Part shown: piece after piece, positions 13,459-64,000 of the stretch
Position numbering within the stretch: the first letter of the stretch is position 1
Layout: each line of letters opens with the position of its first letter
Assembly (NCBI GenBank): GCA_977017645.1
Contig: OZ360222.1
Location: 216,566,001-216,630,000 of the forward strand
Length of the DNA stretch: 64,000 nucleotides
Direction: 5' to 3'
Source of the DNA: Torpedo marmorata
Lineage: Eukaryota
Translations under genes and position numbers: made by a program
Notes under the pieces: generated by a model
Told to the model about the DNA's origin: nothing
The model's input: the letters and a program-made list of their open reading frames with translations, nothing else
Databases searched by the model: none

Positions 13459-13629
13459 TTCATGATACTACATAAAAATTCTAATGATTTGGCACAATCC
13501 AGACTAAGGTAGTGCCAGAGAATTAGATTTTCTGGATTTTTGCTCCAACAGACTTTTAAGTTCTCATTCTTGAGATGTTGCATAATATAATAAAATTTCC
13601 AGTGAACCCGACAAATTTGAAGGGAGCAT

Positions 13630-19300: not shown

Positions 19301-19820
19301 CTTCTCAGACGGGGGGTGATCTTCCTGTCCTCTGGTGCCCTGCTCTAGTCCTCCGCTTCCCCGGAGTCTGCAGCCCCTCGTGGCTGCTGCCGGTTAAAAG
19401 GCGCTGCCATCTTGGGCGCAGACCTCGTGGTCGCGGGATCTTAAATAAAACCACCGTCGGCTCCCTCAGTGGGCCGTTCAAAGCCCGTGCAGAACCGTTG
19501 GCAGTCGACTGGGCGGCTGGACCCCGCGGGAGCACTGTATCTCCGCTCCCACGCTCCCTGCGGGTTCGCACCAGCGGCAACGCTGCCGCTACAGCGGCTC
19601 CGGCAGCGCCGCCGTTGTAGAAATCTGTGGAATTCTCTGCCCAAGGAAGCAGTAGAGGCTACCTCATTAAATATATTTAAGACACAGTTAGATAGATTTT
19701 TGCATAGTGTGGGGAAGTTACCGAAGGTGGAGCTAAGTCCAAATCTGCCATGATCTTAGTGAATGGCAGAGCAGGCTCCATGGGCCAGATGGCGTACACC
19801 TGCTCCTAGTTCTTATGTTT
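16320..19820 (+). mobile_element. Decayed CR1 ORF2 through 3' tail, interrupted by retroposon copy 2
   Basis: Endonuclease remnants, KSPGP, FADDTKLSG, LYRALVGLHLEYCVQFWS; tail CTCCTAGTTCTTATG. Confidence 0.88.
18778..19615 (-). mobile_element. ~840-bp GC-rich non-autonomous retroposon, copy 2
   Basis: Same sequence and tail as copy 1; splits a CR1 between TTCCCAGAG and AATCTGTGGAATTCTC. Confidence 0.85.
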
Positions 19821-34286: not shown

Positions 34287-34820
34287 TGTAGCATGTTGCT
34301 ACGGTTATAGCTCTGCGCGTTGATTTGGCTATAGCTCTGGCGCTCGAGAGGAGATGTGCACTATTCGAGCGTTGAATCAGAACTGCTCTACTCGGCCGTC
34401 GGCTCTGAATTTTATAGGCGGACCGAGCTGGGCTGCCGCGTCACTGATGGGCTTGCAATGCGACGGATTGGTCGGGCCACGATCCGTCGTCGGGGATTGG
34501 CCTGTTTCCTCCCTGCCGTTGTGGCCTATGGAAACAGGCCGTTTGGATCACGTGCCGCCTGCGCGATCGCCGCGTTCGAATATCACTTCCTGTGTCGGCC
34601 TGCGGAGTCGGCCGTCGTCCGCTACACGACCCACCCCCAGAACCGGCGATCTGCGTGGCGGCTATAGTGACTTCAATCCAACAAATAGTCACTTGGAGGC
34701 TAGGTGAGATATTTGTTTTTGGTGCGTTTCAATTAATTTATTACCAAGTCCAATATGTTCAAAAAACTTTATTTACACACGTGTCTTGCAGCAATCTTCA
34801 ATGACTTAAATACCTTCTTT

Positions 34821-37800: not shown

Positions 37801-38880
37801 TTCTCCTAATTCATAATATCTTTGTTTCGTTCTACCAATTAATTTTTCCATTTTGCGAGTTTGTAATAAATTATAATGCAATTTCCTCCTGATTAAACGA
37901 TGTCTCTTAAAGATTGTTTTATTTCTTTGAAAATCTTTCTCCATAAATTCAATCTCCCTTTCCAATTTTTCTTCTTCTTTCAAATAATCTTTTCTAATTT
38001 TTGCCGAAAAACTTATTATCAAACCTCTTAAGTAAGCTTTTAAGGATTCCCAAATTATAAATTTATCATTAATCGAATTATTATTTATTCTTAAAAATTC
38101 CTGGATTTCCTTTCTCATATATTCACAAAAATCTTTCCTTTTCAATAAAGAAGAATCAAATCTCCAATTATATATAGTTTTTTCTTTCTCTGGAATTATA
38201 CACGTCATCAATAAAGGTGAATGATCAGAAATTATTCTTGCTTTATAAGATATTTGAGTTACTCTATCTTGAATTTGTGAAGATATCAAAAACAAATCAA
38301 TCCTAGAAAATGAATTATGTCTAAAAGAGTAAAATGAATAATCTTTTTCTCTAGGATTTAGTTTCCTCCAGATATCCACCAAATTCAAATCTTCCATTAA
38401 ACCAATAATCCTTTTAACTATTTTAGGTCTAGCAAGTGTTCTAGAAGTCCTATCCATGCTCGCATTTAAACAACAATTAAAATCTCCACCGATTAAAATA
38501 TTTTCCTTAGCCTCAGATAAATGTAAAAAAACATCTTGAATAAATTGTTCATCATCCGGATTTAAAACATATAAATTCAAAAATGTCCATATTTCTGAAT
38601 AAATTTGACAATGTATTAAAACATATCTGCCAGCTACATCAATCACTACTGATTGTATTTTAAATGGTAATTTTTTATTAACTAAAATCGCTACGCCTCT
38701 CGCTTTAGAATTAAATGATGAAGCTACTACATGTCCCACCCAATCTCTTTTTAACTTTTGGTGTTCCTTATCAATCAAATGAGTTTCTTGTAAAAAAGCT
38801 ATATCTACTTTCAATTTCTTAATATATGCCAACGTTTTTTTCCTCTTAATTGGATTATTAAGCCCATTAACATTAATACT
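34821..38880 (-). mobile_element. L1 LINE, 5'-truncated at the start of ORF2, inserted in the BEL 3' LTR
   Basis: A tail at 34821; 15-bp TSD TTAAATACCTTCTTT at 34806-34820 and 38881-38895. Confidence 0.96.
35125..38880 (-). CDS. L1 ORF2 (APE endonuclease, RT, C-terminal Cys-rich domain); open frame, first codons missing
   Basis: NVNGL, LQETH, GGDFN, SDH, RQGCPLSP, FADD, CFRC...H..W.C; at least 1235 aa without a stop. Confidence 0.93.
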   Translation of the reverse strand, partial: SINVNGLNNPIKRKKTLAYIKKLKVDIAFLQETHLIDKEHQKLKRDWVGHVVASSFNSKARGVAILVNKKLPFKIQSVVIDVAGRYVLIHCQIYSEIWTFLNLYVLNPDDEQFIQDVFLHLSEAKENILIGGDFNCCLNASMDRTSRTLARPKIVKRIIGLMEDLNLVDIWRKLNPREKDYSFYSFRHNSFSRIDLFLISSQIQDRVTQISYKARIISDHSPLLMTCIIPEKEKTIYNWRFDSSLLKRKDFCEYMRKEIQEFLRINNNSINDKFIIWESLKAYLRGLIISFSAKIRKDYLKEEEKLEREIEFMEKDFQRNKTIFKRHRLIRRKLHYNLLQTRKMEKLIGRTKQRYYELGERAHKVLAWQLKKEQVSKTINAIKKSTGEITYKPQEINESFREYYQNLYTSQIDHDDTKINRFLSKITLPRLNNFNRDILDLPIKMREVVEALSTLKSGKSPGDDGFPIEFYKEFKDLLIPIYMEVLSQIKEIHLLPKTFLNAIITVIPKKDRDVLKTESYRPISLLNVDYKIMAKILTNRLAKYLPILIHSDQAGFIKNRYSKDNIARLISLINLQKRKQDLPLVISLDAEKAFDRLEWNFLFKVLEKFGFGDTFINWIKTIYKEPTARVITNGQISSKFPLMRSTRQGCPLSPALFVLAIEPLAEMIRKDININGIKVGTEEHKISLFADDVLIYMTKSIVSLQQLAKILMEYGEISGYKINSDKSEIMALSQGDYTKCKEVTRFKWAKEGIKYLGVKVDTKLENVYKLNYIPLFNKIKKDLENWKDVPITLMGRVNCIKMNIFPRIQYLFQSIPFGIPQKFFKDLKIIIRKFLWKGKLARVSMDKLTWNYEMGGLQLPNFQYYYKAAQLKFINEFFDLTKSTAWINIELNNIGERYKEDIIYKWNSKLLLVKKKNSPIIKHLLEIWTQLDNEIGRKGSLSPNMPLYQNLFLPFSIDNQFLKIWFQKGIKKIKDCFEAGRFVTFSRLKEKFGILDNTILAYYQVKGFLVEKLGNQLIAPRQDGLELLITNGNVNKFISQMYKLLQRKMPKVGFHKSRLKWESDLNINIDEKHWKDLCKLSMTKIINVRYRLVQYNFFHQLYLTPKKLKKFNPALSDMCFRCKDEIGSFVHSTWLCPKIKDFWSKVKKFLDRIFNIIFPMDPMLFLFGDIKKFSIRNRLNMYQIEFLRIVLAVSKKCIAITWKSDLDLNLDRLHAELRSCIPLEKITYNLCNKYHFFLKIWSPYMRAMGMN

Positions 38881-40249
38881 TTAAATACCTTCTTTAAACA
38901 AAACATAAATAATTCTTGATAACGGTGTCCAATAAATTCCTTTAAACAATTCCTTTGATTGTATTTAAATGTTCAATGAAATGACTTTAAAGACTTTAAA
39001 CCATCAATGAAACGTTCATAAAAGATATGGTGATCTCACTCACCCTCCTCTAAGCCGCCATCTTTTTCTATTCTTTTTCCCTATTTGCGCATGCTCAATG
39101 CGCATACTCCACCGCACATACTCCACCGCGCACACTCCACCGCGCACACTCCACCGCGCACACTCCACCGCGCATACTGCCATAACTTCCCAACTGCGCA
39201 TGCGCCCGTCGGCAATCTAGCGCATGCGCAGAGTACTAAATAGGCCTAGCACGGCCTAACAAACACTGTGACTCCTCCGTAACCCGCCGAGACCATGGGA
39301 GCGCCGAGACCATGGGAGCGCCGCGACCAAGGTAAGTAATTAAGCTTACAGCTCTTACACCGGCCCCTAATTATTATAATTAGACGCAATGTCTTAAATA
39401 ATAATTACACAATCAATTATAAATAACAATAACCATATAACATTCAATCAATATACAAATCTTCTTTCTTCTTTCTTCATAAGACCAGAGTTTACCATAA
39501 CTCTGAATCAACAAAAGTCTGTAACCTGTGAAGTATACAACAACAAATAAAGTCAGTTTGTATTCATCAAAGTTCCTCTGTCTCCAACAGAAGGCAGACC
39601 TTGTTAATAGGTCTATTTAGAAAGCCAGTCTTAGTTTTAATTTGAACTTGACGCACAAGTCTCCTTTTGTCCTGAATAGTCTCAATAATTTTTTCAAGTA
39701 ACCAGGAGTTTCTTGGAGTTGAATTATCCATAATAATTACAAAGTCTCCTCAAAGTTCTTTTATCTCCAGAATCTTTGAGTTAAAATGTCGACAAGTAAA
39801 CTTCAAATCTTCCTCAGACAAAATAGATACAGTTTTTCTTTTGAATTTAACACGAGGCACTTCTTCAGCATGTCATTTCACTTTATTTCTTTCTTTAGTA
39901 TTCCACTTCTCATGTGAAGAATTTAAACTCTTAGAACTAGAATTTGAATATTTATCTGATCCTCTCGATTTTAATAAACGAGTATCTTTATCCACTCTGG
40001 TTTCTATTGCCTTTTCCTGCAATTCCAAATCTAATTTTGCAACTTTCAATTCAGTCTCAGTTCCTTCCGAGAAATTAATAACTTGATCTGAAGTGAAAAT
40101 ATCATGTGATACATTGATATTTCTATTGTCAACCCTGCTGTGGTAAACTTGAAATTTTTAAATTTCTTCATCTTGCTTGTTACATTTCTGCAATGCAATA
40201 TCACTTTCTTTCTGCATTGTTAATAGCTGAACATTCAATTTACATTCTT

Positions 40250-43200
40250 TTTTTTTTTTTATTAATAATTTTATTTAATTTTTTAAAATCACAAAATACA
40301 TATATCAAAAAAATAGTATATTATTGAAAATACATGTGATATATTACCACCCCCCTTCCCACCCTCCCCTCCCCAACCCCCCCACGCTATCTAATAAAGT
40401 ATAAAAATGTTAATTAAAAGAAAAGAAAAAGATTGAATAATAAAGTTAAGAAAGTTAGTGTTAGTATGAGGAGAAAAACTATTTCAAGCTAACTCTACTT
40501 GTATATTGGAGGTTACTTTGTCAGCGGTACTAACTTCTAGAGAATTAATTCATACCCATAATTCTCATGTATGGGCTCCAAATTTTCAGAAAGAAATGAT
40601 ATTTGTCTCGTAAATTATACGTAATTTTTTCCAATGGTATACACGAGCGTAACTCTGCATGTAATCTATCCAAATTTAAATCTAAATCTGATTTCCAAGT
40701 AATAGCAATACATTTTTTTGAAATTGCTAACACAATTCGTAAAAATTCTATTTGGTACATATTCAATCTATTTCTAATACTAATTTTTTTAATATCTCCA
40801 AACAGAAATATCATAGGGTCCATTGGAATCGTAATATTAAGAATTCTATCTAAAAATTCCTTGACTTTAGACCAAAAATTTTTAATTTTCAAACACAACC
40901 ATGTACAATGTACAAAAGAACCTATTTCATCTTTACATCTAAAACACATATCTGACAATGCCGAATTGAATTTCTTTAATTTTTTAGGTGTTATATATAA
41001 TTGATGAAAAAAATTATATTGTACTAATCTATATCTAACATTAATAATCTTAGTCATACTCAGTTTACATAGTTCTTTCCAGTGTTGTTCATCTATACTA
41101 GTGTTTAGATCTGATTCCCAATTTAATCTAGATTTATGTAGTCCTACTTTAAACATTTTTTTCTGAAGTAATTTATACATTTGCGATATAAATTTGTTAA
41201 CATTTCCATTAGTAATTAATAACTCTAACCCATCTTGTCTAGGGGATATTAATTGATTCCCTAATTTCTCAACTAAAAATCCTTTAACTTGATAATAAGC
41301 CAAAACTGTATTATCCATTATTCCAAATTTTTCTTTCAATCTAGAAAAAGTAACAAATCTTCCTGCCTCAAAACAATCTTTAATCTTCTTAATTCCTTTT
41401 TGATACCATAATTTTAAAAATTGATTATCAATAGAAAATGGTAATAATAAATTCTGATATAATGGCATGTTTAAAGAAATTGATCCTTTTCGTCCTATTT
41501 CATTATCTAATTGATTCCAAATTTCCAATAGATGTTTAATAATCGGTGACTTTTTCTTTTTAATCAATAATAATTTAGAATTCCATTTATAAATAATATC
41601 TTCCTTATTTCTTTCTCCTATATTACTCAATTCTATATTAATCCAAGCCGTATTTTTAGTTAAATCAAATAGTTCATTTATAAATTTTAATTGTGCTGCC
41701 TTATAATAATATTGAAAATTAGGGAGTTGTAATCCACCCATTTCGTATTCCCAAGTTAATTTATCCATACTTACTCTTGCCAATTTTCCTTTCCATAAAA
41801 ACTTTCTAATAATAATTTTTAAATCTTTAAAAAATTTTTGAGGAATACCAAAAGGTATAGATTGAAAAAGATATTGAACTTTTGGAAAAATATTCATTTT
41901 AATACAATTCACTCTTCCCATTAAAGGTATGGGTAAATCTTTCCAATTATCCAAATCCTTCTTTATTTTCTGAAATAAAGGTATGTAATTTAATTTATAT
42001 AAATTTTCTAACTTTGTATCCACTTTAACTCCCAAATATTTAATAGCTTCTTTAGCCCATTTAAATTTTGTAACTTCTTTACATTTAGTATAGTCTCCTT
42101 GAGATAAAGCCATTATCTCACTTTTATCCGAATTAATTTTATATCCAGATATTTCACCATAATCCCTCAATATTTTATCTAATTGTTGAAGTGATTTAAT
42201 AGACTTTGTCATATATATTAATACATCATCTGCAAACAAACTAATTTTATGCTCTTCTACACCTACTTTTATCCCATTTATATTAATATCTTTCCTAATC
42301 ATTTCCGCTAACGGTTCTATTGCCAATACAAATAAAGCAGGTGACAATGGACATCCTTGTCTTGTTGACCGCGTCAAAGAGAATTTAGATGATATTTGAC
42401 CATTTGTAATTACTCTGGCTGTAGGTTCCTTATATATAGTCTTAATCCAGTTTATAAACGTATTTCCAAATCCATACTTCTCTAAAACCTTAAATAAAAA
42501 CTTCCATTCTACTCTATCAAATGCTTTTTCTGCATCAAATGCTATCACTAACGGCAAATCCTGTTTCTTTTTTTGTAAATTAATCAAACTTATTAATCTT
42601 GCTATATTATCCTTTGAATATCTATTTTTGATAAATCCTGCTTGATCTGGATGTATTAAAAATGGTAAAAACTTAGCTAGTCTATTTGTCAAGATTTTTG
42701 CCATTAATTTATAATCTACATTTAACAATGATATAGGCCTATACGATTCTGTTTTTAATACATCTCTATCTTTCTTTGGTATAACTGTAATAATAGCATT
42801 TAAAAATGTTTTCGGTAATGAATGAGTTTCCTTTATTTGAGTTAATACTTCCATATATATAGGTATCAATACATCTTTAAACTTCTTATAAAACTCTGCC
42901 GGAAATCCATCATCACCGGGAGATTGACCACTATTCAATGATGATAAAGCCTCACCTACTTCTCTCATTGTAATTGGTAAATCTAACAAATCTCTATTAA
43001 GACTATTTAGTTTGGGCAATGTAATTTTGGCTAAAAAATCATCAATTTTTACAACATCTTGATTCATTTGCGAAGTATATAAATTTTGATAATACTCTTT
43101 AAATGAATTATTTATTTCTTGAGGTTTATAAGTTATTTCTCCAGAACTTTTCTTTATAGCATTTATAGTTTTAGAAACTTGTTCTTTCTTTAATTGCCAT

Positions 43201-43526
43201 GCTAAAACTTTATGTGCTCTTTCTCCCAATTCATAATATCTTTGCTTTGTTCTACCAATTAATTTTTCTATTTTTCGAGTTTGTAATATATTATAATGTA
43301 ATTTTTTCCCAATTAAACGTTGTCTCTTAGAAATTGTTTTATTTCTTTGAAAATCTTTTTCCATAACTTCAATTTCTCCCTCCAGTTTTTCTTCTTCTTT
43401 CACATAATCTTTTCTGATTTTTGCCGAGAAGCTTATTATCAATCCTCTTAAATATGCTTTTAAAGATTCCCAAATTATAAACTTATCTTCAACTGAATTA
43501 TTATTAATTCTTAAAAATTCCTGAAT
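40250..43526 (-). mobile_element. L1 LINE, same family, truncated after the endonuclease; RT ORF open (40545-43442)
   Basis: A tail; 16-bp TSD TTCAATTTACATTCTT at 40234-40249 and 43527-43542; 965-aa frame collinear with the other L1. Confidence 0.96.
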
Positions 43527-46500
43527 TTCAATTTACATTCTTGATTGTTTTCTATAGTCAACTGTTTTGTGTTATTAACCAATAATTTGTTCTCTTTCAA
43601 AATATTATTCTCTTCCTACCACCTTTTACATTTTGATAATGCTGAATCTCTTTCCTCAGTAACTGTATTCATTTCTTCAGTAGTTATTCTTTTCTTCCGC
43701 TTTCTGACTTTGCGAATTTTACTTACAATTAAATCTTTCTGTTTACTGTTTTCATGATTATCTACTATTTCCAATTCCCCTTTCAACATTTTGTTTTCTG
43801 AATTCAATTGCATTAAATTATCATTCACATTCTTTTTTATTCCATCAGCACAATTTTCTGCGTTCTCCAGTTTTACATCACATTGCAATATTTCTTCATT
43901 GATTTTGTCTGTTGTAACCTCTGAACTACAAAATATACATTCAAATTTGTTCTCAGTCACTTGTTTTATTCCTGTATCTGATTCAATTACACATGAATAA
44001 TCAATAGTATTATTTGCAACATATTCTAATACTTCACTTTCATTCATTTCTGATGAAAATAATTCCTTCAATGTTGTTTTAAATACCTTTGATTTATTTT
44101 CACATTGATCTGTTTTCTTTTCTTCAAAAGTGATTTTCTTATTCACAGTCTTTTGCTCTTCCCTTAACTCATCAACTTTCACAACCGAAATCATATTAAT
44201 ATTTATCGCTAACTGTTCCTTAGCAATATCATTATTTCTTTCCAATGGTCCATTGATTGTCCAACCAAGCTTGGTTCTAATAGCGTAAGGTCCATTCCTT
44301 CTACTCTGTATTACTTCTAATGGTTCCAATATCTTTGGCACATCTGAATCAATCAGCATTTCTATCTCCGAGTTAATTTCAGGTAAATAAACCTTCCACA
44401 GATAAGACAAATGATGGATATCATTTTGATGAGGAATATTTCCTTCATGCACAGGCATAGTCTTCTGAGTATATAAACTTGGAAGATTACAAAATTTTTT
44501 GTCATCCAATCCAGCAACCTCTAAGCCTGAAACAATTCTGGTTTCAACGACCTTTTCTTGTCCCATGGTTTTCAACATAATTCTTGACCCTTGAATATTA
44601 AGTTTGTTCATTAGTCCTTCCGTGCAAAAAGATGCAGTGCTGCCTGGGTCTAGAAATGCATATGGATGTACTGATGCATCCCCTTTCTTGGTCTTGACTT
44701 GTACAGGCACTATTGAAAGTTTGCAGTTATCTACACCGGCCCCGGTAAGACCACTTGTCTGAACCGAGGTTATAACATTGTTTTCTGATGTTTCCTTTGT
44801 TTCTGTTTGCTCCTTTTCCAATTCCTTGTTTCTTTGATGGATATGCAACATTCTAGGATGTTTCAACTTACATATGTTACAATTAAGTCACTTCTTGCAG
44901 TTTTTACTGATGTGCCCTTTACACAGACTGCTAAAACATATTCCAATTTCCTTTAAGAAAGCGATCTTCTCCTTATGTTCCTTCTTTTCCAACCGTAAAC
45001 ACATTTCCAAAGTATATCCACCTTTACAGAACAAACAACTCTTTTCATCAGGCAAACTTTCCTTTTCCTTATTTACTTTGTCCTTTTCTTTATTTATAAC
45101 TGACACATAAGAAGCAAAAGTACTCCTTTTCAATTTTGGACTGGCCTGTGAGTTAGACCTCCTTACATCTTTGCCCATTGAATTTTCTCTGGTATTTACA
45201 TATATTGGATCTGTTTCAATGTACACCTGTCGTTCAAGAAATTTTACCAAGTCTTTTAAATTAGCTCTTCCACCGTAATTTTCTTGTATATCACAAGCCA
45301 AATTTCTCCATCTATTCCATAACTTGTAAGGTAATTTTTCTAAGATGATTCGCATATTACCAGGCACTTCAAGCTCACGAATATTATCGATATCTTCCAT
45401 GGCATTACAACATCTCTTAAAAATAGAGTATATTCTTGTAGAGCCTTTACATCATTCTGTTTTATTGATGTCCATTTAAGAGCTTTATCCATATAAGCTA
45501 AAGCAATTCGATGCTTGTTGCCAAAATGTTGTTCTAGTAAAGCCTTAGCTCTGTCTAATCCTCTTTCTGAGGGCATATGTTGACAACTCTTTACACGTTC
45601 TTTTGGATGTCCCTTTGTGAACATTTCCAAATAATAAAGACATTCATCGCGATCTTGGCATTTATTTTCAATATTGTGTTTGAAAGGTCTCATAAATGAT
45701 TGATACTGAAGTGGATCACCATCAAAAGTTTGTATCTCTTTCTTGGGTGAAGAAGAGAGAGACTGTAACTGAATCAATGATGCAGCAATTTCATTTTGTC
45801 TTCCTTTTGATGACAATGCATTGCTCTGTTCACCTTCTCTTGTTGCAGGTAATGTATCTGGAAACCTCATTGGTGTAGTTTCTTCCATATTTTTGATGCT
45901 TGACTCAAATAACAAGAGAGCTATATCGTTTGACCGAACCCAAGCCGCAGTTTATCTTCATATGTTACCACTGGTACATGTGACTCAATACCAATATGCT
46001 CTTGAAGGATTTGTCCTTGTATTTGCAAGTCTTGTACCTCTGGTTCTAAAATATCTACCCCTTTGGTTGGTTTATTTTCCTGTGACTCTTTATTAAAATA
46101 TGACCTTTTATTATCAGACACTTTAGATAATTTACTTCGAGCACCAGATACCATTGAGCCTTCTATTGCTTTCTTTTTTGCCTTAGCAATAGTAATGTTT
46201 GCTTCCAGCTCCTGCTGTTCTTTTCTCTGCCTTAGCTGCTCCTTCTCTTGCCTTATCTGCTCCTTTAGCTTCTCCTCCTTTTGTCTTATCTGCTCCTTTA
46301 GCTGCTCCTCATTTTGTCTTAGCTGCTCCTCCTTTTGTCTTATCTGCTCCTATAACTGCTGCTCATTTTGTCTTATCTGCTCCTTTAGCTGTTCCTCCTT
46401 CTGTCTTAGCTGCTCCTCCTTATGTTCTAAAATATGTTTATCCTTAAGCGTTTTTTGTCGTGCAAGAAGAGCGGCCAAGTTAACATCAATCTTTGTATGT

Positions 46501-46592
46501 GACGATGCTGAACTTGAAGTACGAGAAACTGGAGCTCAAACCAGAACTTCGTTTGCTTCTCCTGCTTTCAGCATTTGAGACACTGTCACTTG

Positions 46593-49500
46593 TGTGGTAA
46601 ACCACTGTTTTAGTATTGTGTGGTATAGGTATGTACTGCAGGCTGTCCCGATGTCTACTCCCCCCCTCCCTTGGGTGTCCAGGTAATCCCTCCCCCTTCC
46701 TCACCTGAATAAAGGCCACTGTGCCACAGTCCCTCCCTCAGTCCGGGATTAGATCTGCAGGAATACTGCTGCTGTGTTTTAAGGTAATAAAAGCCTATGG
46801 TTCGTTCACACTCATAGTCTTTGAGTATCATTGATAGGCCTATCAATTTTATTACCTTATAAAAATCTGATGGAAGGCGCTCTAAGACCGGACCGTCTGG
46901 ACATCGATCATCTAGCTCCTGATGCCGGTAACTCTTTTGAACACTGGCTACGCTGTCTCGAGTCCTTCATGATAACCATCAAAGCAGAAAGTGAGGAGCA
47001 GCAACTAAGGGTCCTCGTGTCCAGCGTAAGCCCTCGGTTATTCTCAACTGTGAGAGACTGTAAAACCTATACGGAGGTGATGGATGCGCTGAAGAGGATC
47101 TACGTGACGCCTGTCAACGCGGTCTACGCGAGGTACAGACTTTTTACGCGAAAGCAGCGGGCCGGGGAGTCCATCATGGAGTATGTCCGGGACATACAGT
47201 CGCTGGTACGAGCATGCGACTGTAAAGCCCTAACTGCTGAGGAGCACGTTGAATTGCTGGAGAGAGACACATTCATCATGGGGATCAGGTCGGTATACGT
47301 GCGCCAGAGGCTGCTGGAGCACGCCGACCTCCGTGCTGCGGTCTCAATGGTCCACACGCTGGAGTCCGGGCTGCGGAACTCCGACGCCATGCAGGCACGC
47401 GACCCCCAGCCCGCAGTGTGGTCAGCCCCATCCCCCAGCCCTGCCAGCGATCTGACTGCCGCCGCCGTTTGCCGCGACCCGATCGCTACCGCCGCTATCC
47501 TCACCGCCGCAGCCGTTAACCGCGAGCCCAAGAAGTGTTACTTCTGCGGGCTCGATAAGCACCAAAGGAAATGCTGCCCGGCCCGCGACGCGACTTGCTG
47601 CGGCAAGAAAGGCCATTATGCGAAGGCCTGCCGCTCTAAGTCGCACACGGGTCCGAGCAGCGCCGCGTGCGAGCTGCGGGAGCGGCCATCTTTGATGCTG
47701 GCACTTCCGGCGTCGACCTCGTGCGAAGAGTGGAGGCGGCCATCTTTGATGCTGGCACTTCCGGCGCCACCATCTTATAGGCCTACGTCGGTACTTCCGG
47801 CGCTACCACCGCCGCCATCTTGCAGCGCGAGCAGCAGCGACATGTGCGATCCACGGGAGCGGCTATCTTTAGTAACGGCGGATCAAGATGACTACATCCC
47901 AACCTTAGCATCAGTCACCCTCGACCAGACTGTTCCCCACCAGCTGTCGCGATCCATGATGGACATCCTGGTGGAGGGGCATAAAACCACCTGTCTCTTC
48001 GATACGGGCAGTACGGAGAGCTTCATCCACCCGGACACTGTCCAGCTCTGTGGCCTCACTACTATACCGGTAAGCCAGAGGGTGGCCATGGCGTCTGGGT
48101 CACACACAACAGACATCCGGGGGGCTTGTGTGGCAAATATCGTGGTACAGGGGACTGAGTATCGTCAATTCTCTCTGTTCATTATGAATCGTCTGTGTGC
48201 ACCGGTGTTATTGGGTCTTGATTTTCAGAGCCACTTACGGAGTGTCACGATGCGGTATGACGGTCCACACCCCGCGATCACTGTAGCGAACCACCAGTTC
48301 CTGAACGACACGTCCCAGACTACCTGTGGCCTCTCCACTCTTAAGATCTCGCCCCCGTCGCTATTCGCCAACCTGACCCCTGACTGTAAGCCTGTGGCAA
48401 CCAAGAGCAGGCGATACAGCGCAGGGGACAGGGCGTTTATCAAGACGGAGGTGCAGAGACTATTACAGGAGGGGATTATTGAGAGGAGTAATAGTCCCTG
48501 GAGAGCCCAGGTAGTCGTAGTAAAAGGGGCCAAGAGTAGGATGGTGGTGGACTACAGCCAAACCATCAACCAATTCACGCAGTTGGATGCATATCCGCTA
48601 CCACGAATAGCGGATATAGTAAATCAGATTGCCCAATATAGGGTCTTTTCAACCATAGACCTAAAATCGGCATATCACCAGCTCCCTATCTGAAGGGAGG
48701 ACCGTCCATACACTGCGTTTGAGGCGGATGGCAGGCTGTTCCATTTCCTGCGTGTCCCTTTCGGGGTCACTAATGGTGTATCGGTATTTCAGCGGGAGAT
48801 GGATAGGATTGTGGACCATTATAAACTCAAGGCCACTTTCCCATACCTGGATGACATTACTATCTGTGGTCTTGATCGTCAGGACCACGAAAACAACCTC
48901 CGGAGGTTCCTGCAGGCGGCCAAAGCACTAAACCTAACGTATAATAAAGAGAAATGCGTGTTCGGTACCACACGCCTCGCTATTTTGGGGTATGTGGTAG
49001 AGAACGGGGTTATTGGACCTGACCCCGACCGCATTAGGCCCCTGCTGGAACTTCCACTTCCATCCACACCCAAAGCACTTAAACGATGCCTCGGGTTCTT
49101 CTCATACTATGCACAGTGGGTTCCAAATTATGCTGATAAGGCCCGACTCCTGGTGAAATCCACCGCATTTCCCCTTGCTTCGGAGGCGCGTAAGGCGTTC
49201 GACCTTATAAAAGGGGACATTGCGCGAGCAACAATGCACGTGGTGGATGAAGAGACACCTTTTCAGGTAGAGAGCGACGCATCGGACTTCGCGCTGGCTG
49301 CTACCCTCAACCAGGCGGGAAGGCCGGTGGCGTTTTTCTCATGGACCCTCCAAGGCCCCAAAATTCGGCACTCCGCGGTGGAGAAGGAAGCCCAGGCCAT
49401 AGTGGAAGCCATCAGGCACTGGAGGCACTATCTCGCCGGCAAGCATTTTACCCTGCTGACCGACCAACGCTCTGTGGCATTTATGTTCAACAATCAGCAG

Positions 49501-51109
49501 CGGGGTAAGATCAAAAATAACAAGATCATGAGGTGGAGAATAGAACTCTCCACCTACAATTACGACATCCTTTACCGGCCCGGGAAGCTCAATGAGCCCT
49601 CCGACGCTCTATCCCGGGGATCATGCGCCAGCGCGCAGATCGACCGATTACATGCCCTACACGATGCCCTCTGCCACCCGGGAATTACCAGGCTCTTTCA
49701 CTTCGTGAAGTCACAGAACCTGCCATACTCCCTGGAAGAGGTCAAGACAATGATCAGCAGTTGCCGGGTTTGCGCGGAGTGCAAACCCCAGTTCTACCGC
49801 CCCGACAAGGCACGGCTGATCAAAGCCACCCGCCCTTTTGAACGTCTCAGTATTGACTTCAAGGGCCCCCTTCCCTCCACGAACCGCAACGTGTACTTCC
49901 TGAATATTATTGATGAGTACTCGCGGTTCCCCTTTGCCATCCCCTGCCCCGACACTTCGGCTACCTCAACCATAAAAGCTCTCCACCAGGTATTTACGCT
50001 GTTTGGCTTCCCAAACTATATACATAGCGACCGGGGAGCAGCTTTTATGAGTGAGGAGCTGCGACGGTACCTGCAGGCCCGAGGCATCGCCACTAGCAGG
50101 ACCACCGGGTACAACCCCCGGGGAAATGGACAGGTGGAAAGGGAGAACGCCACTGTCTGGAAGGCCGCGCTCCTGGCTCTCAAGTCCAGGGGACTGCCGG
50201 TCTCCCGTTGGCAGGACGTCCTCCCCGAAGCCATCCACTCTATCCGGTCCCTGCTGTGCACGTCCACTAACGCAACCCCTCATGAACGACTTTTCTCCTT
50301 CCCCAGGAAGTCGACCACCAGAACCGCCCTACCTGCCTGGCTGACGTCCCCGGGACCAGTGCTGCTCCGCAATCACCTTCGGAGCAGCAAATATGAGCCG
50401 ACGGTCCAGAGGGTGCAGTTGGCGCACGCAAATCCACAGTAAGCATACGTGGTCTTCCCTGATGGACGAGAGGACACTGTCTCGATTCGTGACCTGGCGC
50501 CCGCTGGGGCACCGGAAGAAAATCCCGACGGGCAAGACCACCTGCTGCAACCCCTCCCCAATTCCCCATCCAGCGCGCCAGACCCAGCACCCTCGCCGGG
50601 ACCACAGACACACCAAGAAGCCAGGCAGGAGGTGACTGCACAGACAATCCTACCATCTCCCCCATCACCACAACCCGCCCCGTCACAAGGACTACGCAGG
50701 TCACAGCGGCAAATTCGACCGCCGGATCGCCTTGATCTGTGAAAGTGCATGTATATATACGTTTCTGTATAATTGTCACTGTATATCTGCTTCTGTAATA
50801 TAGTTAGAGTGGTCACGTCACCCCGCTGGACTCTTTTTTTAAAAAGGAGGGGTGAATGTGGTAAACCACTGTTTTAGTATTGTGTGGTATAGGTATGTAC
50901 TGCAGGCTGTCCCGATGTCTACTCCCCCCCTCCCTTGGGTGTCCAGGTAATCCCTCCCCCTTCCTCACCTGAATAAAGGCCACTGTGCCACAGTCCCTCC
51001 CTAAGTCCGGGATTAGATCTGCAGGAATACTGCTGCTGTGTTTTAAGGTAATAAAAGCCTATGGTTCGTTCACACTCATAGTCTTTGAGTATCATTGATA
51101 GGCCTATCA
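46593..51109 (+). mobile_element. Young full-length Gypsy LTR retrotransposon
   Basis: 253-bp LTRs 46593-46845 and 50857-51109 (TG...CA, one difference seen), TSD ACTTG, polypurine tract AAAAAGGAGGGGTGAA. Confidence 0.97.
46870..50742 (+). pseudogene. Single-frame gag-pol with two in-frame stops (48691-48693, 50440-50442)
   Basis: The three ORF-track pieces share one frame; CCHC knuckle, LFDTGS, YLDD, ESDAS, H..LCHPG...CRVC, DDE core. Confidence 0.93.
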
Positions 51110-51953
51110 ACTTGCTTGTATTTCGTCCTGCAGGTCATATGTTGTCTTCATACTTACCTCTTTCACCACTTCGAATTGTACATCCTTTGCATCTTCAGCC
51201 TCTTCATTTTCTTCATCCTCTTCATTTGGTGACAAAATTTCAGCCATTTCCACGTTATCTTCTTGTTCATCTAACGAAGCTAATCTTGCGATGAGAACCT
51301 TTTTATTTCCACTTATATCTTGTTTCAGTCGCTTCAATTCTTTTTTAATATCCGCAACCTTCATGTCTTCAATACGTTGGTCCTTAACAGCAACATCAGC
51401 GGTTGCTGCGTCAGCTGCTAATACATCAGTGGCTTCTGCATCAGAGGCTGCTGCGGCCATTTTACTCATCTTGTTCCACTGTCCTTTGAGCATACACAAC
51501 ACTAGCCAAATCAACAGTCCCCAATGGACTAGCGGCAGCAAATCCAATCTGTGTTCTAACTTGCCAAAGATACACAGAAGGAGTCCACAGACTTATGCCT
51601 ACCACTTCAGATGACTGTAACGTGCTGCTATTCACAAACGAGTTTCAACCACAACATCTGTCAATAATATGGCTGATTTTCCAAAAGTGGTTTCTCCAAC
51701 GTATTTGTAGTACACTTTACTATAAGATTTGAAGCTTTAAATCCCTCTCTGGCTGTTACACATGGCAGATGGATGTGGATACAAACTGCCCCCAACTCGA
51801 GGCATCTCCAAGATGGCCACCATTTTATTTTAAATATCAGTCCAAAGCACAGAGAGCTTATTCTATCTTCTTTCCTTCAATTTTCTGTTCGAAACAACCT
51901 CTTTTATTGACTAATTATATAGTGACTTCAATCCAACAAATAGTCACTTGGAG

Positions 51954-53582
51954 TAAAAAACACAAATGCTGGAGAAACTCAGCAGGTCAAACAGCGTCTT
52001 TTATGTAGCAAAGGTAGAAATACATAACCGACGTTTTGTGCTTGAGCCCTTCATCAAAGTATGAGAAAATGCCGGCAGGCGTCCGAACAAAAGAGTGAGG
52101 GGGGAAGGGGGGTGGCAAAGGCAGGAGATGATAGGTGGAGATAGGAGGGAGGGGACAGCAGCAAAGAGGGGGAGGAGGGATGGCTGGGTAGGTGGAGAAA
52201 AGCAGGAAGGACAGGTGAGGGGGGAGGGGAAGGGAACGACAAGCAGAAAAGTCAATGTTAATGCCATCTGGCTGGAGAGTGCCGAGACGGAAAATGAGAT
52301 GTTATTCCTGCAATTTGCGGGTAGTCTGGGTAGGATAGTACATAAGGCCATGGACAGACATGTGAGTGTGGGAGTGTGACCCGGAATTGAATGGTTGGCT
52401 ACTGGGAGGTCGCTGTTGTTGCGGACGGAGAGGAGGTGCTCAGCAAAGCGGTCTCCCAATCTACGACCAGTCTCTCCGATGTAGAGAAAGCCACAAAGGG
52501 AGCACCGGATGCAGTAAATAAGTTCTCTAGATGTACAAGTGAAGTGTAGTTTCACTGGAAGGCCTGTTTGGGGCCCTGGACCGTGGTGAGGGGGGAGGTG
52601 TGGGCGCAGGTGTTGCACCTCCTGCGGGCACATGGGAAGGTTCCGGGGGTGCGATGGGTGGGGAGGGATGAGTGCACGAGTGAATCGCGGAGGGAAGGCC
52701 GAGAGGGGAGGAGAAGTAAAAATGTGTCTGGTGGTGGGATCCTGTAGTAAGTGCCGGAAATTCTGGCGGATAATGTGTTGGATGCGGAGGCTGGTGGGGT
52801 AGTAGGTGAGGATGAGGGGGATTCTATGTTTGTTGCGTCTGGGGGCAGAGGGGGCCAGAGCAGATGAGCAGGAAATTGATGAGATGCGGGTGAGGGCTGA
52901 GTTGATGGTGGTGGAGGGGAAGCCATGTTTGTGGAAAAAGGCAGACATTTCAGAAGATCTGGACTGGAACACCTCATCTTGGGAACAGATGCGGCGGAGA
53001 CGGAGAAATTGAGAGAAGGGGATGGCATCCTTGCAGGGGACAGGGTGTGAGGAAGTGTAGTCCAGATAGTTGTGGGAGTTGGAGGGTTTGTAGTAAATGT
53101 CGGTGGAAAGCTTGTCTCCTGACATGGAGACAGAGAGATCCAGGAAGGGGAGAGTGTTATCGGAGATGGACCAGGTGAGTTTGAGATCGTGGTGGAAGTT
53201 GGATGCGAAGTGGATGAAGTTGACAAGCTCATCGCGGGTGCATGAGGCAGCCCCGATGTAGTGCTCCACAAAGCCCACAAACAGGCAGGCGTAGCTGGGA
53301 CCTATGCGGGTACCCATGGCTAGTCCTTTGATTTGGAGGAAGTGGGATGAGTTGAAGGAGAAGTTATTGAGAGTGAGGACAAGTTCTGCCAGGCGGAGGA
53401 GGGTGGTGGTAGAGGGTCACTGGTCGGGTCTTTGGTCCAGGAAGAAGCGAAGTGCTTTCAGACCTGCTGTGTGGGGGATAGAGGTATAAAGGGATTGGAC
53501 ATCCATGGTGAAGATGATGCGGTCCGGTTCAGGGAATCTGAAGTCATTGAGGAGATGGAGGGCATGTGAGGTGTCGCGGATG
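51954..53582 (-). mobile_element. Penelope-like element inserted in the BEL 5' LTR
   Basis: AMGTRIGPSYACLFVG (RT), LPFLD, IYCIRC..YIGETGRRLGDRFAEH (GIY-YIG); 13-bp TSD TAGTCACTTGGAG at 51941-51953 and 53583-53595; empty site visible in the other LTR. Confidence 0.93.
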
Positions 53583-53735
53583 TAGTCACTTGGAGGCTAG
53601 GTGAGACACTTGTTCTTGACACGTTTCAATTAATTTACTACCAAGTCCAATATGTTCAAAAAACTTTATTTACACACGTGACTTGCAGCAATCTTCAATG
53701 ACTTAAATATCTTCTTTAAACGAAACATAAATAAT

Positions 53736-54584
53736 AGGCATGATGGCGGCGCTGCCGGAGCCGCTGTAGCGGCCGCGCTGCCGCTGGTGCGGACCCCGGG
53801 GAGCGTGGGAGCGGAGATACAGCGCTCCCGCGGGGTCCAGCCGCCCAGTCGACTGCCATCGGTTCCGCACGGGCTTTGAACGGCCCGTTAAAGGAGCCGA
53901 CGTTGGTTTTATTTGAGATCCCGCGACCGCGGGGTCTGCGCCCAAGATGGCAGCGCCTATTAATCTGCAGCAGCCATGAGGGGCTGCAGACTCCGGGGAA
54001 GCGGAGACCTGGAGCATGGCACCAGTGGACGGGAAGATCACCCCCGTCTGAGAAGGAGAAGCGGAGGAGACGACCTACGGATCGGTGAGCACAGCGGCGG
54101 ACCGGTGAGGGGCTCTGAGGCTGAAAGACCAGTGCATGCGGCGGGCTGCTGGCGACTCAAGGCGAGGAACCCGCGGAGGCTGTGGGCTGCTGGAGACTGC
54201 TGTCGGCGGACTCACGCCGGGCTGCGGACTGCTGGAGGTTGGCTCGAACTGGCTGGAGGAGTACCAGGTATCGGAACCGGGATGTGAGGGGGTGCCGAGG
54301 GCGACCTGACCATGTTGGAGGTTCGGATCTGGATCTCGGGATGACGATCGTTTGGACTGGACTCTGTGTGGCTGCGGAGGCTGCGGAAGCGCTGGAGGCG
54401 AATCTATGCACACTCGGTGACTCTGGGGAGACTCTCTTTTGCTTCTCTTTCTCTGACTGTAAGGAATGTTAGAGGCACTTAGGCAATTTCTGTCGGTGGC
54501 GAATCTGTCTGCCTTGCAGCAGGCAAAAAGAAATTTCGTGGTATATGACACTGTCTTATTGCTGTGACAATAAAATGAATCTTG
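53736..54584 (+). mobile_element. GC-rich non-autonomous retroposon, copy 3, in the BEL 5' LTR
   Basis: TSD AATAAT at 53730-53735 and 54585-54590; empty site at ~38905-38920; tail AATAAAATGAATCTTG. Confidence 0.9.
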
Positions 54585-57500
54585 AATAATTCTTGATAAC
54601 GATGTCCAATAAATTCCTTTCAACGATTCCTTTGACTGTATTTAAATGTTGAATGAAATGACTTTAAAGACTTTAAACCATCAATGAAACGTTCAATAAA
54701 AGATATGGCGATTTCACTCACCCTCCTCTAAGCCGCCATCTTTTTCTATTCTTTTTCCCGATTCGCGCATGCTCAATGCGCATACTCCACCGCGCATACT
54801 GCCGTAACTTCCCAACTGCGCAAGCGCCCGTCGGAACTCTAGCGCATGCACAGAGTACTAAATAGGCCTAGCACGGCCTAACAAACACCGCGACTCCTCC
54901 GTAACCTGCCGATACCATCGGAGCGCCGCGGCCAAGGTAAGTAATTAAATAATTACAGCGGCTTTGTTTTTGGGAGGCCGCCGCCTGTGACGTGGAATAG
55001 GATAGGTGACTGTTTGGCATGGGTCTAGGTGCGCTGGCTTGAGTCGGTCAACCGTGACCGTTTCCTCTCTGCCGCCAATATCTATGACACAGGTGGAGCC
55101 GTTGTGCTTGAGTACCCCGTACGGTCCTTCGTACAGTCATTGGAGTGGTGGCTGATGTGCTTCACGCCTTACAAACACGTGCTTGCAGTCCTTCAAGTTC
55201 CTTGGAACAAAAGTTTTGGGCTGGCCGTGTGCCCTGAGTTGTGCCGGGCCCAGCGTACCCAGTCGTTGCCGCAGACGAGTCAGTGTTACCGCTGGAGTCT
55301 CTTCCGTGTTCCCGGCGTCGGCCAGGAATTCACCCGGGATGACCAGTGGTGCGCCATAGACCATCTCCGCTGCAGACACGTCAAAATCCTCTTTGGGCGC
55401 AATGCGGATGCCCAGGAGGACCCAAGGAAGTTCGTCGGCCCAGTGAGGTCCTGTGAGCCAGGCCATGAGGGCTGCCTTGAGGTGCCTGTGGAGCCTCTCC
55501 ACCAACCCGTTGGCCTGAGGGTGTTATGCCGTGGTATGGTGGAGTTGCGTTCCCAGGGTGTTGGCCAAGGCCACTCAAAGGCTGGAGGTAAACTGGGCAC
55601 CTCTGTCTGATGCAAGGTGCTCAGGGACTCCAAACCGTGCCACCCAGGTGCTTAGCAGGGCTCTAGCACACGACTCTGTGGATGTTTCCACTAGTGGGAC
55701 TGCTTCCTGCCACCTGGTCAGACGATCCATCATCGTCAAGAGGTATCGGGCACCTCTTGATACCGACAGTGGGCCTACGATGTCTATATGCACATGGCTG
55801 AACCTCCGGGGAGGGGCTTTAATGTGCATCTGCACCTTTGATGCCTGACAATGCGTGCAGGTCCTGTCCCACTGACTGACCTCTTTACGGAGACCGTGCC
55901 ATACGTATCGGCTGGCCACCATCTTAACTGTGGTTCTGATAGCTGGGTGCGCCAGGTTGTGGACTGTGTTGAAAACCCGTTTCCTCCATGATGCGGGTAT
56001 GATGGGTCTAGGCGTACCGATGGAGGTGTCGCACAGAAGCGTCTGTTTTCCTGGGCCGATGCGTACGTCCTCTAGGCGGAGACCGGTTATCGCCGTCCGG
56101 TATGTCGGGGTCTGCTCGTTGTGCCTCAGCCAGGGCTGTGTAGTCGATACCTGGGGCGAGGGCGTGTATTGCCAGTATGGCTGGCCGTGATAGTGCGTCG
56201 GCCACCACATTCGACTTCCCGGCAATGTGTGTGATGTCCGTGGAGAACTCAGACACATAGGACAGGTGCCTTTGTTGCCTGGCTGACCATGGGTCTGACA
56301 CCTTGCCGAAAGCAAAGGTGAGCGGCTTGTGGTCCGTGAATATTTTGAACCTCCTGCCCTCCAGGAAGTATCGGAAATGCCGGACCGCCAGGTATAGAGC
56401 TAAAAGCTCCCGATCAAATGCACTGTACTTGAGCTCCAGTGGGCGGAGGTGCTTACTGGAAAAGGCTAGCGGCTGCCATTGTCCAGTGACCAGCTGCTCA
56501 AATACTCCCCCGACCGCTGTGTTGGAGGCGTCCACAGTGAGGGCTGTCGGGACGTCTGTCCTTGGATGCACCAAGAGGGTGGCATTTGCCAGGGCGTCTT
56601 TGGCTGTTTGGAAAGCCTCTGATGCTTCCTGCGTCCACTCGATCTCCCTCTTTGGGCCTGTCATGAGGGAGAATAAGGGCTGCATGATGTCAGCTGCTGT
56701 CGGTATGAAACGGTGATAAAAGTTAATCATACCGATGAACTCCTGCAGGTCCTTTACTGTTGCGGGCTTTATGAATGACCGGATGGCCTCCACCTTCTCG
56801 GGCAGCGGCCTGGCCCCATCCTTGTTAATACGATGCCCCAGGAAATCAATGGACTCTCGCCCGAACTGGCATTTGGCGGGGTTGATTATTAAACCGAAAT
56901 CCTTCAGACTGGTGCACACTTGTCTTATGTGGATGGCATGTTCAGCGCGGTTGCGGCTGGCTATCAATATGTCACCCAAATAGATGAAGGTGAATTTGAG
57001 ATCCCGCCCTACTGCGTTCATCAACCTCTGGAAAGTTTGAGCTGCAGGCCGAATGGCATTCGAAGAAACTCAAACAGACCAAAGGGGGTGATTATGTCTT
57101 CCGGTTGGACTGGGATCTGGTGATAGCCTTTGACGAGGTCCACCTTCAAGAATATCCGTGCCCCTTGTAGGTTGGCAGTGAAGTCCTGGATATGGGGCAC
57201 CGGATATCTGTCCGGCGTGGTGGCCTCGTTGAGACGGCAGTAATCCCCGCATGGCCTCCAGCCCCCTGCTGCCTTGGGCACCATGTGGAGTGGGGAGGCC
57301 CAGGGGCTGTTGGAACGCCGCACGATACCGAGCTCTTCCATTTTCCGAAACTCCTCCTTGGCGAGGTTGAGTTTCTCGGGGGGAAGGCGGCGCGCCCTGG
57401 CGTGAAGGGGAGGTCCCGTCGTCAGGATATGGTGCTTAACCCCGTGCCTAGGTTCTGCTGAGGAGATATGTGGCATTGCGATGGCAGGGAATTCAGTCAC

Positions 57501-61927: not shown

Positions 61928-62619
61928 GTAGGCATAAAAATTTGATTTTGTCATTTTATGTTTCACTCTAATTTCGTATACCAGCACCATTCCATGCTAT
62001 CCTCATTAACTCAATGGCTTATTGATTAGTGTATTAAAAGGACACATTATAATTGTGTCTTTTGTTGAAACTAGCACAAGCTAGCGAATATGCAGCTGTG
62101 TGCCACATATGTAACTATAATTTTATGAAATGTATGTGGACATGGAATTACAGTGGCCTTATTTATTAGAAAATAATTAACTAATGAATCTCATTGAGAT
62201 CTGCATTATAGGTGAAGTAAGGTGCAGGTAGTGTGATATTAGGTTTCTGTAATATGTCCATAGTAAAATGCTTGAGATTTACTGGTATATGACTGGTCTT
62301 GCTTGACTAATATAGGCATACCTTGTATAACACGGTTAATACATTCCAAACAAGTTCAGTGTTATGGAAAACCGCACTGTTCAAAGCATTATTACAATGT
62401 ACTTTAATGTAATACGCTCCAATCCTATAATTATTTATTCTTTTACCTAGAACTCTTATGCAAACATGTGGATAAAATATTTAAAAGAGATATATAAAAC
62501 TGAAAAATGACAAAGATCTTTATTGGCAATAAGTGAAAATTGTTTATTTAAGAAAATATTTGTCTAATGTAGTTTGCACTTCTTTAGTTCCAGCTCCCCC
62601 TGCCTGTCTCCGGCAAACT

Positions 62620-63872
62620 CAGTGATTGCCCACCCGGGATGGTGACTGCCCGGGACGGTGACTGCCTGCTTGGGACGTTGACTGCCCACTCGTGACTGTG
62701 ACTGCCCACCCGGGATGGTGACTGACCGCTCGGCATGGTGACTGCCCGGGACGGGGACCGACCGCTCCGGACGGTGACTGCCTGGGACATTGACTGCCCG
62801 CTCATGACCGTGACTGCCCGCCCGGGACCGTGACTGCCTGCCCGGGATGGTGACTGACCGCTTGGGATGGTGACTGACCACTCGGCATGGTGACTGCCCG
62901 GGACGGGGACCGACCGCTCCGGACGGTGACTTCCTGGACGGTGACTGCCTGGGACATTGACTGCCCGCTCACGACCGTGACTGCCCGCCCGGGACCGTGA
63001 CTGCCCGCCAGGGACGGGGACTGCCCGCTTGGGACGGGGACCGACAGCCCAGGACGGGGATGGTGACTGCTTGCCCGGGACGGTGACTGCCTGCTTGGGA
63101 CGTTGACTGCCCACTCGCGACCGTGACTGCCCGCCCGGGACGGTGACTGCCCGGGACGGTGACTGCCCGGGACGGTGACTGCCCACTCGGGACGCAGACC
63201 GACAGCTCAGAATGGTGACTGCCCGGGACGGTGACTGCCCGCTCGGGACGGAGACCGACCGCTCAGGACGGTGACTGCCCGCTTGGGACGTAGTCTGCCT
63301 GGGACGGTGACTGCCCAGGACGGTGACTACCCACTCAGGACGGAGACCGACCGCTCAGGATGGTGACTGCCCAGGACGGTGACTGCCCGCTCGGGACGGG
63401 GACCGACAGCCCAGGACGGGGACCGACAGCCCGGGATGGTGACTGCTTGCCTGGGACGGTGACTGCCTGCTTGGGACGTTGACTGCCCACTCGCGACCGT
63501 GACTGCCCGCACGGGACGGTGACTGCCCGGGACGGTGACTGCCCACTCGGGACGCAGACCGACAGCTCAGAATGGTGACTGCCCGGGACGGTGACTGCCC
63601 GCTCGGGACGGAGACCGACCGCTCAGGACGGTGACTGCCCGCTTGGGACGTAGTCTGCCTGGGACGGTGACTGCCCAGGACGGTGACTGCCCACTCAGGA
63701 CGGAGACCGACCGCTCAGGATGGTGACTACCCAGGACAGTGACTGCCCGCTCGGGACGGAGACCGACCGCTCAGGACAGTGACTGCCCGGGACGGGGACC
63801 GACCGCTCGGGACGGTGACTGCCCGGGACGGGGACCGACCGCTCGTGACGGGGACCGACCGCTCGGGTCGGG
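62620..63872. repeat. GC-rich minisatellite (GGGACGGTGACTGCCC(GCTC) variants) with a 360-bp higher-order duplication
   Basis: 16-20-bp units; sequence at 63181-63320 recurs at 63541-63680. Confidence 0.95.
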
Positions 63873-64000
63873 GATTTACACATTTTCCTTGAAAATAAGT
63901 AAATCATTGACCATGTTGTCATTTTGAATTGACTGTAAATTACATGCTGAAAGAATGGCTAACCAACCTGAAATCATACCAAAATAGGCACAAGGTCAAT

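Follow-up and report, generated by a model that had tools for sequence, protein, structure and literature searches.

The window (the whole stretch of Torpedo marmorata DNA analysed here, 64,000 nucleotides long) contains a BEL/Pao-type retrotransposon on the minus strand at 34663-54957, a derivative without pol in which about 5.9 kb of the element's own sequence is interrupted by five nested insertions and several frame breaks. The element is flanked by a 5-bp target duplication (54958-54962 and 34658-34662), is collinear at 82-93% with an uninterrupted copy elsewhere in the genome (L038), and itself sits within an older Gypsy element. Its 5' LTR (51918-54957) is split by an 845-bp repeat (53743-54587) and a Penelope-like element (about 51950-53582), and its 3' LTR (34663-39358) by the second of two LINEs (34821-38895). 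The nested stack as a whole occupies 34287-58900, the BEL element lying just before the 3' LTR of the older Gypsy and holding, in turn, the two LINEs (88% alike), a young Gypsy, the Penelope-like element and the 845-bp repeat, which recurs at 12620-13459 and 18777-19616. A GC-rich minisatellite with units of 16 and 20 bp fills 62600-64000.

Reading inward from the 5' LTR, again on the minus strand, the first features are eroded remains of the 5'UTR of a host gene, SLTM (51461-51492; 38 nt in the host, L110:4943-4980), an SLTM-derived start codon with an alanine-rich leader (51374-51460), which internal repeats have lengthened in the window's subfamily, and a SAP core from SLTM exon 1 (51281-51373) that over 99 nt is 66% identical in DNA to the host exon and 48% to SAFB. 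The start codon common to the family is at 51460, aligned with that of host SLTM, whereas the family has no common ATG at 51469, where L032 reads ACG. An acidic linker that does not come from SLTM follows (51110-51280); the window copy lacks 24 nt at the linker's start, just past the second SAP helix and including most of the exon-2-derived sequence, which are present in L032 and sister copies. Gag is then interrupted by a later Gypsy-type insertion on the plus strand (46593-51109; Gag-PR-RT-RH-IN, 253-bp TG..CA LTRs 99% alike, 5-bp duplication at 46588-46592 / 51110-51114), beyond which lies the rest of Gag and the protease region (44240-46592), with a serine-rich motif, a coiled coil, and DUF1759, zinc-knuckle and protease regions broken by frameshifts and stops. 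DUF1759 scores 24.6 bits in the window, just below the 25.4 cut-off, and 25.7 bits in L032, in which Peptidase_A17 is found at E 2.8e-43.

Some SAP-bearing copies have sequence for the PR-RT-RH-IN regions, which is absent from the window copy. In its pol-less form the family instead carries a coiled-coil piece and a spliced Elongin A mRNA where RT, RNase H and integrase stood. The window has the coiled-coil cargo at 43533-44239 and about 40000-40245, separated by a 5'-truncated, RT-bearing LINE (40246-43532, minus strand), and eroded remains of the Elongin A mRNA at 39772-39993, all likewise on the minus strand (two host exons are matched by these remains, at 81% over 158 bp and at 87% over 61 bp). 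The arrangement is clearest in L240, where five host Elongin A exons, spread over about 30 kb in the host, lie back to back at 91-98%; the product matches Pfam Elongin_A (E 2.9e-8) and PDB 8oev_M at residues 577-635. Of 150 candidates scored with an Elongin A query, 136 matched, including four host exons; the loci include element copies L213, L237 and L240 and host exons L249-L252, and a second Elongin A paralogue is located at C25:175.3 Mb. The coiled-coil cargo, which precedes the Elongin A piece (one 594-residue frame in L237, L237:4319-6100), presumably resembles vertebrate MIPOL1. No host exon for it was among the 30 loci fetched out of 40 matches, all of which were element copies.

A preliminary description of this DNA had placed a SAP-like motif at 51373-51281, in the first open reading frame past the 5' LTR, and had proposed that removal of the Gypsy insertion would join it in frame to Gag. 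The position is as described, and the SAP-bearing frame is the first long one after the LTR end at 51918. In 49 of 49 other copies examined (L002-L050), the two Gypsy flanks abut without a gap around a single copy of the 5-bp duplication and the SAP runs directly into Gag, as proposed. Copy L032 holds SAP, DUF1759 and the protease region within one 1080-residue frame, with RT and Peptidase_A17 pieces beyond. The match to Pfam SAP (PF02037) covers model positions 2-35 of 37 at E 7.7e-8 and 32.2 bits, well above the 23.9-bit cut-off, which excludes a chance motif; sister copies L032 and L031 score 30.7 and 24.7 bits. Structure models also agree with the assignment, as the predicted fold is a helix-loop-helix (pLDDT 82 and 79) for which SAP domains are ranked first (Foldseek probability 1.0 with all E-values above 0.001; best VIA Z 7.2), the model for the window SAP leaning on an alignment of better-conserved relatives. 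Foldseek places first the SAP domain of ERI1, an exonuclease that acts on the histone-mRNA stem-loop. In the ESM Atlas a SAFB-family cluster came up at 0.87, which is no more than a lead, and among the matches listed from BFVD were SAP proteins from phages and large DNA viruses, none of them named as a retroelement Gag. A SAP search with a single sequence found 0 of 1002 candidates.

The family is abundant. With the SAP segment as query, the 6.2 Gb genome returned 37,439 first-look candidates, of which 150 were scored, 149 besides the window matching at 88-94%; capsid queries returned about 38,800. These figures are first-look candidates rather than copy numbers, and suggest tens of thousands of loci for the BEL family. 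Of 20 copies read over 10 kb, 15 are pol-less like the window, two have RT, and in three an interruption comes too early for either form to be recognized. The two LTRs of 12 full pairs are 88-98% alike, and the script found a 5-bp target duplication in 11 of 21 two-LTR copies, in addition to the window. In the window's subfamily the LTR terminus is ..ATA instead of ..CA (8 of 8 copies with a duplication found; 51918 and 34663 in the window), while older copies end in ..ACA (3 of 3). Equal-scoring copies of the SAP segment also lie on many small contigs (G000 C1210:126317 and about 50 more), as do copies of lineage B, which suggests elements inside a large repeated unit. The leader-SAP-Gag stretch is represented in all of its 30 bins among contigs of organisms B, C and D, with no listed piece spanning the whole, and relatives thus appear to have the SAP-bearing family as well; from runs X6-X9, only scattered pieces matched a basal copy.

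In a quick capsid-protease tree (51 rows, midpoint-rooted and with no Gypsy outgroup, so that superfamily is not assigned by it; 8 of 41 loci dropped for low coverage), a single branch (SH-aLRT 90) sets the 21 SAP-family rows apart from the rest, and they are nested among teleost-type relatives. The copies with the most SLTM-like SAP branch first. The row labelled L126 is a second, younger copy in the same locus.

To what host gene is this Gag N-terminus related? Twenty-nine of the top 30 loci in a Pfam SAP scan of the genome are this same Gag segment, in several diverged subfamilies, and one is a host exon. A profile of 28 element SAPs found eight proteins among 7,993 scored; the best six are SLTM (five so named), headed by Callorhinchus SLTM at E 3e-13. 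We located the host SLTM, whose exons are 77% identical to Callorhinchus SLTM, versus 50-65% for lizard, bird and teleost, which points to a cartilaginous-fish host. Its exon 1 ends past the second helix of the SAP, and exon 2 begins about 1.18 kb later. In ten element copies, about 189 bp align at 78-89% with exon 1 of SLTM and the 38 nt of 5'UTR before it. Of 11 SLTM-like copies, 10 skip the intron and read on into exon 2, of which they have the first 15-16 nt (a match of 21-23 nt at 95-100%, 6 nt of which are common to the acceptor and the end of exon 1). An 80-bp DNA query with exon 2 matches nothing but the host gene, and exons 3-5 have no DNA match in the elements. The SLTM-derived piece is truncated, has no poly(A), and has element sequence on both sides.

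Identity of the SAP core to SLTM drops stepwise across subfamilies, from 96% to 55%. Over the 99-nt core it is 0.93 in basal copies (up to 0.96), then 0.84, 0.75, 0.74 and 0.69 in the series leading to the window's subfamily, and 0.59-0.67 in lineage B, with SAFB further away than SLTM in every group. At sites coding for the same residue, basal copies use the same codon as SLTM at 0.91 and as SAFB at 0.30, and the window's subfamily still does so at 0.53 and 0.19. A quick DNA tree places all 22 element SAPs with host SLTM (SH-aLRT 96), apart from SAFB. Given the UTR and exon 1 match, the reading into exon 2 without the intron, the codon and identity ladder, and the DNA tree, the segment was captured, in frame and at the front of Gag, from a spliced SLTM mRNA. 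The preliminary description had left the choice between a captured and an element-evolved module; the former stands, with a named donor, and the latter does not.

Other sources fail on the same evidence. SAFB is rejected since its exon 1 has no DNA match among the element SAPs and both identities and codons favor SLTM, and identities and codons also exclude an hnRNP-U-like gene. MKL1, the only PDB sequence match under E 0.001, gives way to host SLTM DNA matching at up to 96%. Capture from genomic DNA is excluded by the absent intron, and an L1-type processed pseudogene by a 5' end that is present, a 3' end cut within exon 2, and an exon 2 query that leads to the host gene only. The other host loci recorded in the searches are an hnRNP-U-like SAP exon (L053), SAFB exon 1 (L116) and a SAFB-family RRM locus (G000 C54:17.15 Mb).

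The acidic linker noted after the SAP is present, but it lies outside the captured segment: the host-derived part stops after 16 nt of exon 2, exons 3-5 contribute nothing detectable as DNA, and the linker bears a weak likeness to that of a relative, P0001. We considered what stood at the Gag N-terminus before. The 120 outside relatives (those named are teleost) share the capsid-protease at 40-65% identity, and these teleost-type BEL/Pao elements have the same serine-rich motif, DUF1759 and Peptidase_A17. None of the 120 scores as SAP (best E 0.1), in keeping with the earlier remark that such a domain is not standard for vertebrate BEL elements. Instead, in 66 of the 120 the same serine-rich motif is preceded by a helical N-terminal domain about 110 residues long, many of the others being N-terminally short gene models. 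This conserved domain (about residues 10-120 in P0001, P0002 and 64 more teleost-type relatives) is unnamed; five relatives tested gave no Pfam match over cut-off for it, and its ESM Atlas clusters are likewise unnamed. The simplest reading is that the SAP replaced this older domain in a single event.

The steps of the exchange can be proposed in outline. The 5' end of a spliced SLTM mRNA (38 nt of UTR, exon 1 and 16 nt of exon 2) would have been taken up, likely once, by template switching of reverse transcriptase, and two such switches during reverse transcription are the probable route, following the model for LTR-mediated retrocopies (PMC5131818). The switch points are unreadable because no pre-capture parent or helical-domain sister was found in the genome, either among 25 candidates from one query or upstream of 57 capsid-picked loci. 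The captured segment would then likely have taken the place of the helical Gag domain. Once there, many SAPs arrayed on assembled Gag, each with a micromolar affinity for double-stranded DNA, may have acted together as an avid tether by which the particle or integration complex stays on chromatin. The tether role is suggested by analogy with the SAP of SAFB2, which binds dsDNA and not ssDNA at micromolar affinity and shows a minor dimer fraction (PMC9958909). It is reasonable to put at a little over one half (about 0.55) the probability of the reading as a whole, namely in-frame capture of SLTM by a BEL/Pao element and likely use of the SAP as a weak, multivalent dsDNA tether that holds Gag or the integration complex on chromatin. 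The chromatin-binding parts of some retroviral Gag proteins tether in a similar way.

The strongest competitor, which we consider unlikely but worth taking seriously, is that the SLTM piece is a passenger, valued as a good 5'UTR, start codon and soluble N-terminus or simply hitch-hiking, so that the SAP is only a loosely kept folded spacer. The selection data bear on this directly. Net dN/dS between host and window's subfamily is 0.20 (95% interval 0-0.53), and 0.21 (0-0.64) in a repeat with copies picked by capsid; between basal copies and the window's subfamily it is 0.23, with 0.31 for capsid-protease. Ratios are higher for the last steps to the window's subfamily (0.62-0.67) and for capsid-picked lineage B (0.45-0.49), with intervals spanning 1 in both, which suits a passenger. 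Ratios within the groups of the host or basal versus window comparison are 0.64-0.69, and 0.36 in 20 capsid-picked copies of the window's subfamily; across subfamilies they range over 0.3-1.1, mostly 0.5-0.7, and therefore the neutral baseline is below 1. All SAP ratios come from only 33 codons. The SAP dS of about 1.1 is twice that of capsid-protease (0.5), and its dN is also the higher (0.25 and 0.15); the high dS probably reflects GC-rich host DNA drifting to element composition, which lowers the ratio. Overall, dN/dS is about 0.2 between host or basal copies and the window's subfamily and 0.45-0.67, with wide intervals, elsewhere, and the data give moderate support to purifying selection on the SAP.

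The distribution of changes is less easily accommodated by a passenger. In each of the two long-lived lineages the SAP has stayed in frame while capsid-protease accumulated 0.3-0.6 net dS. When lineage B was picked by capsid rather than by SAP, 21 of 27 distinct copies had the SAP and six were interrupted; in the 20 ungapped cores (three duplicate upstream regions and one gapped core, L197, were dropped), changes fall at 2 of the 13 positions shared by three host SAPs versus 15 of the 20 others (p 0.0013). Groups G2-G7, in contrast, were chosen on their Pfam SAP score, which biases them toward conservation. In SAFB2, K53 together with S54 is decisive for dsDNA binding, and R45A unfolds the domain (PMC9958909). 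Residues are numbered here by matching V35, R45, K53 and S54 to the host SAFB exon. On that numbering, 47 of 49 copies of the window's subfamily and all 20 capsid-picked lineage-B copies retain K53, a surface residue, again against a passenger. R45 and L47 point the other way in the window's very abundant subfamily, where R45 is Leu or Met in 49 of 49 copies (R kept in none) and L47 is replaced in 46 of 49 (Gln or Lys in 44, L kept in three). They are retained in the other groups, picked by SAP likeness (R45 40/40, L47 39/40), and largely in capsid-picked lineage B (15/20 and 20/20). Position 31 is mostly Glu in all derived groups, and the net charge of the SAP has risen to +5 in the window's subfamily. 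The SAP of this subfamily may have been weakened or remodelled.

A subfamily without the SAP also favors a passenger. An in-frame loss of 147 bp removes the SAP core from 11 of 30 copies picked by basal capsid (L145, L146, L148, L159, L161, L163, L164, L165, L167, L169 and L170, six of which were aligned); eight others have the SAP and 11 are interrupted upstream. L219 groups with the deleted copies only because its match starts at the breakpoint. This subfamily spread while retaining the SLTM UTR, start codon and alanine run; some of its copies are pol-bearing and others share a further internal deletion. Its net divergence from SAP-bearing copies is about zero, and thus replication in cis and in trans cannot be told apart; the deleted copies may have been moved by SAP-bearing helpers. 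With no measurable stem, the subfamily founded no diverged lineage in our sample, which counts against a passenger. Family-wide presence of the SAP therefore holds for the window's subfamily (49/49) and the two long-lived lineages, but not for this one. Two further observations suit a passenger: insertion flanks show no AT-rich bias (59.4% AT at 11 sites versus 59.7% background, from a small sample and a rough background), and the uptake of Elongin A mRNA by the same family suggests that captures are frequent here.

It is also conceivable, if improbable, that the SAP serves the element's own RNA or cDNA instead of host chromatin, through RNA packaging or by binding structured RNA or nascent double-stranded cDNA in the particle. 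Its place on Gag rather than beside integrase, as in CopiaMBD, would suit this role, as would ERI1 as first fold match, the lack of insertion bias, and retention of the SAP in pol-less copies (15/20) that encode only Gag-protease and cargo. The closest studied SAP, that of SAFB2, nevertheless bound dsDNA only among the DNA forms tested, Gag retains a zinc-knuckle region of its own, and fold rank is silent on ligand. Least probable is counter-defence, in which Gag bearing the N-terminus of a host transposon repressor would act as a decoy that competes or pairs with SLTM and SAFB and eases repression of element RNA: L1 RNA is indeed bound and repressed by SAFB1, SAFB2 and SLTM, and mouse cells that have lost these proteins show higher LTR/ERV expression (PMC10901741), and the minor dimer fraction of the SAFB2 SAP would permit pairing, but the SAP was taken alone, with no RRM or ER-rich region, its dimerisation is weak, and element SAPs diverged fast from the host sequence, which a mimic should avoid.

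Returning to the preferred reading of a captured chromatin tether, a broader form of it can be stated, at somewhat less than even odds: a vertebrate retrotransposon may have swapped its own Gag N-terminal domain for the DNA-binding domain of the repressor SLTM, may use it as a chromatin tether, and may thereby have founded a radiation of tens of thousands of copies, of which this genome would retain the full series of stages, beginning with a capture still 96% identical and ending with remodelled and deleted forms. Because one genome preserves the donor gene together with the splice joint, the two boundaries of the capture and a graded series of descendants, the birth of a Gag domain from a host mRNA and its later remodelling become traceable. 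The helical domain of fish BEL Gag is marked as apparently exchangeable, and since the donor family represses transposon RNA in mammals, the counter-defence reading is open to experiment.

Comparison with known systems places the element between two precedents, resembling CopiaMBD in its suggested function and LTR-mediated retrocopies, including maize Bs1, in its origin; the origin can be read from the copies themselves, and the likeness in function is proposed. Accessory chromatin-reading domains of retrotransposons (chromodomain, PHD) are described as mostly too old to trace (PMC6673714). The element SAP resembles those of host SLTM and SAFB1/2 in sequence, predicted fold and K53, but it comes without RRM or ER-rich region, with position 31 changed in the derived groups and R45 and L47 in the window's subfamily. 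The word SAP does not occur in the accessible text of a review of BEL/Pao elements (PMC3118150), and open-access PMC and bioRxiv text gave no report of a SAP on BEL/Pao or LTR Gag; the 7,993 candidates scored argue weakly against independent SAP-Gag fusions in other taxa. SAP is an accessory domain of other transposable elements, the Zisupton DNA transposons and a Chlamys Penelope-like element, although these are not LTR elements, do not have it on Gag, and have no donor gene named in the parts of that report available to us (PMC8557442). CopiaMBD of a centipede and spiders (de Mendoza et al. 2019, PMC6673714) is likewise an LTR retrotransposon whose coding frame includes a DNA-reading domain of host origin. 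Its MBD lies beside integrase, has a Ka/Ks below 0.1, shows both binding and an insertion bias, and is proposed to steer integration, whereas the SLTM SAP is at the Gag N-terminus and appears to be under weaker selection, its donor mRNA, intron loss and intermediates still legible in the genome. In LTR-mediated retroposition, as described by Tan et al. 2016 (PMC5131818), spliced and truncated host mRNA without poly(A) is likewise found within LTR elements, as in Bs1, and metazoan cases include one in a mosquito flanked by a BEL element. Those retrocopies interrupt the element, with Bs1 present in 1-5 copies, whereas the SLTM piece has become the N-terminus of Gag, is present in pol-bearing copies, and marks a whole radiation.
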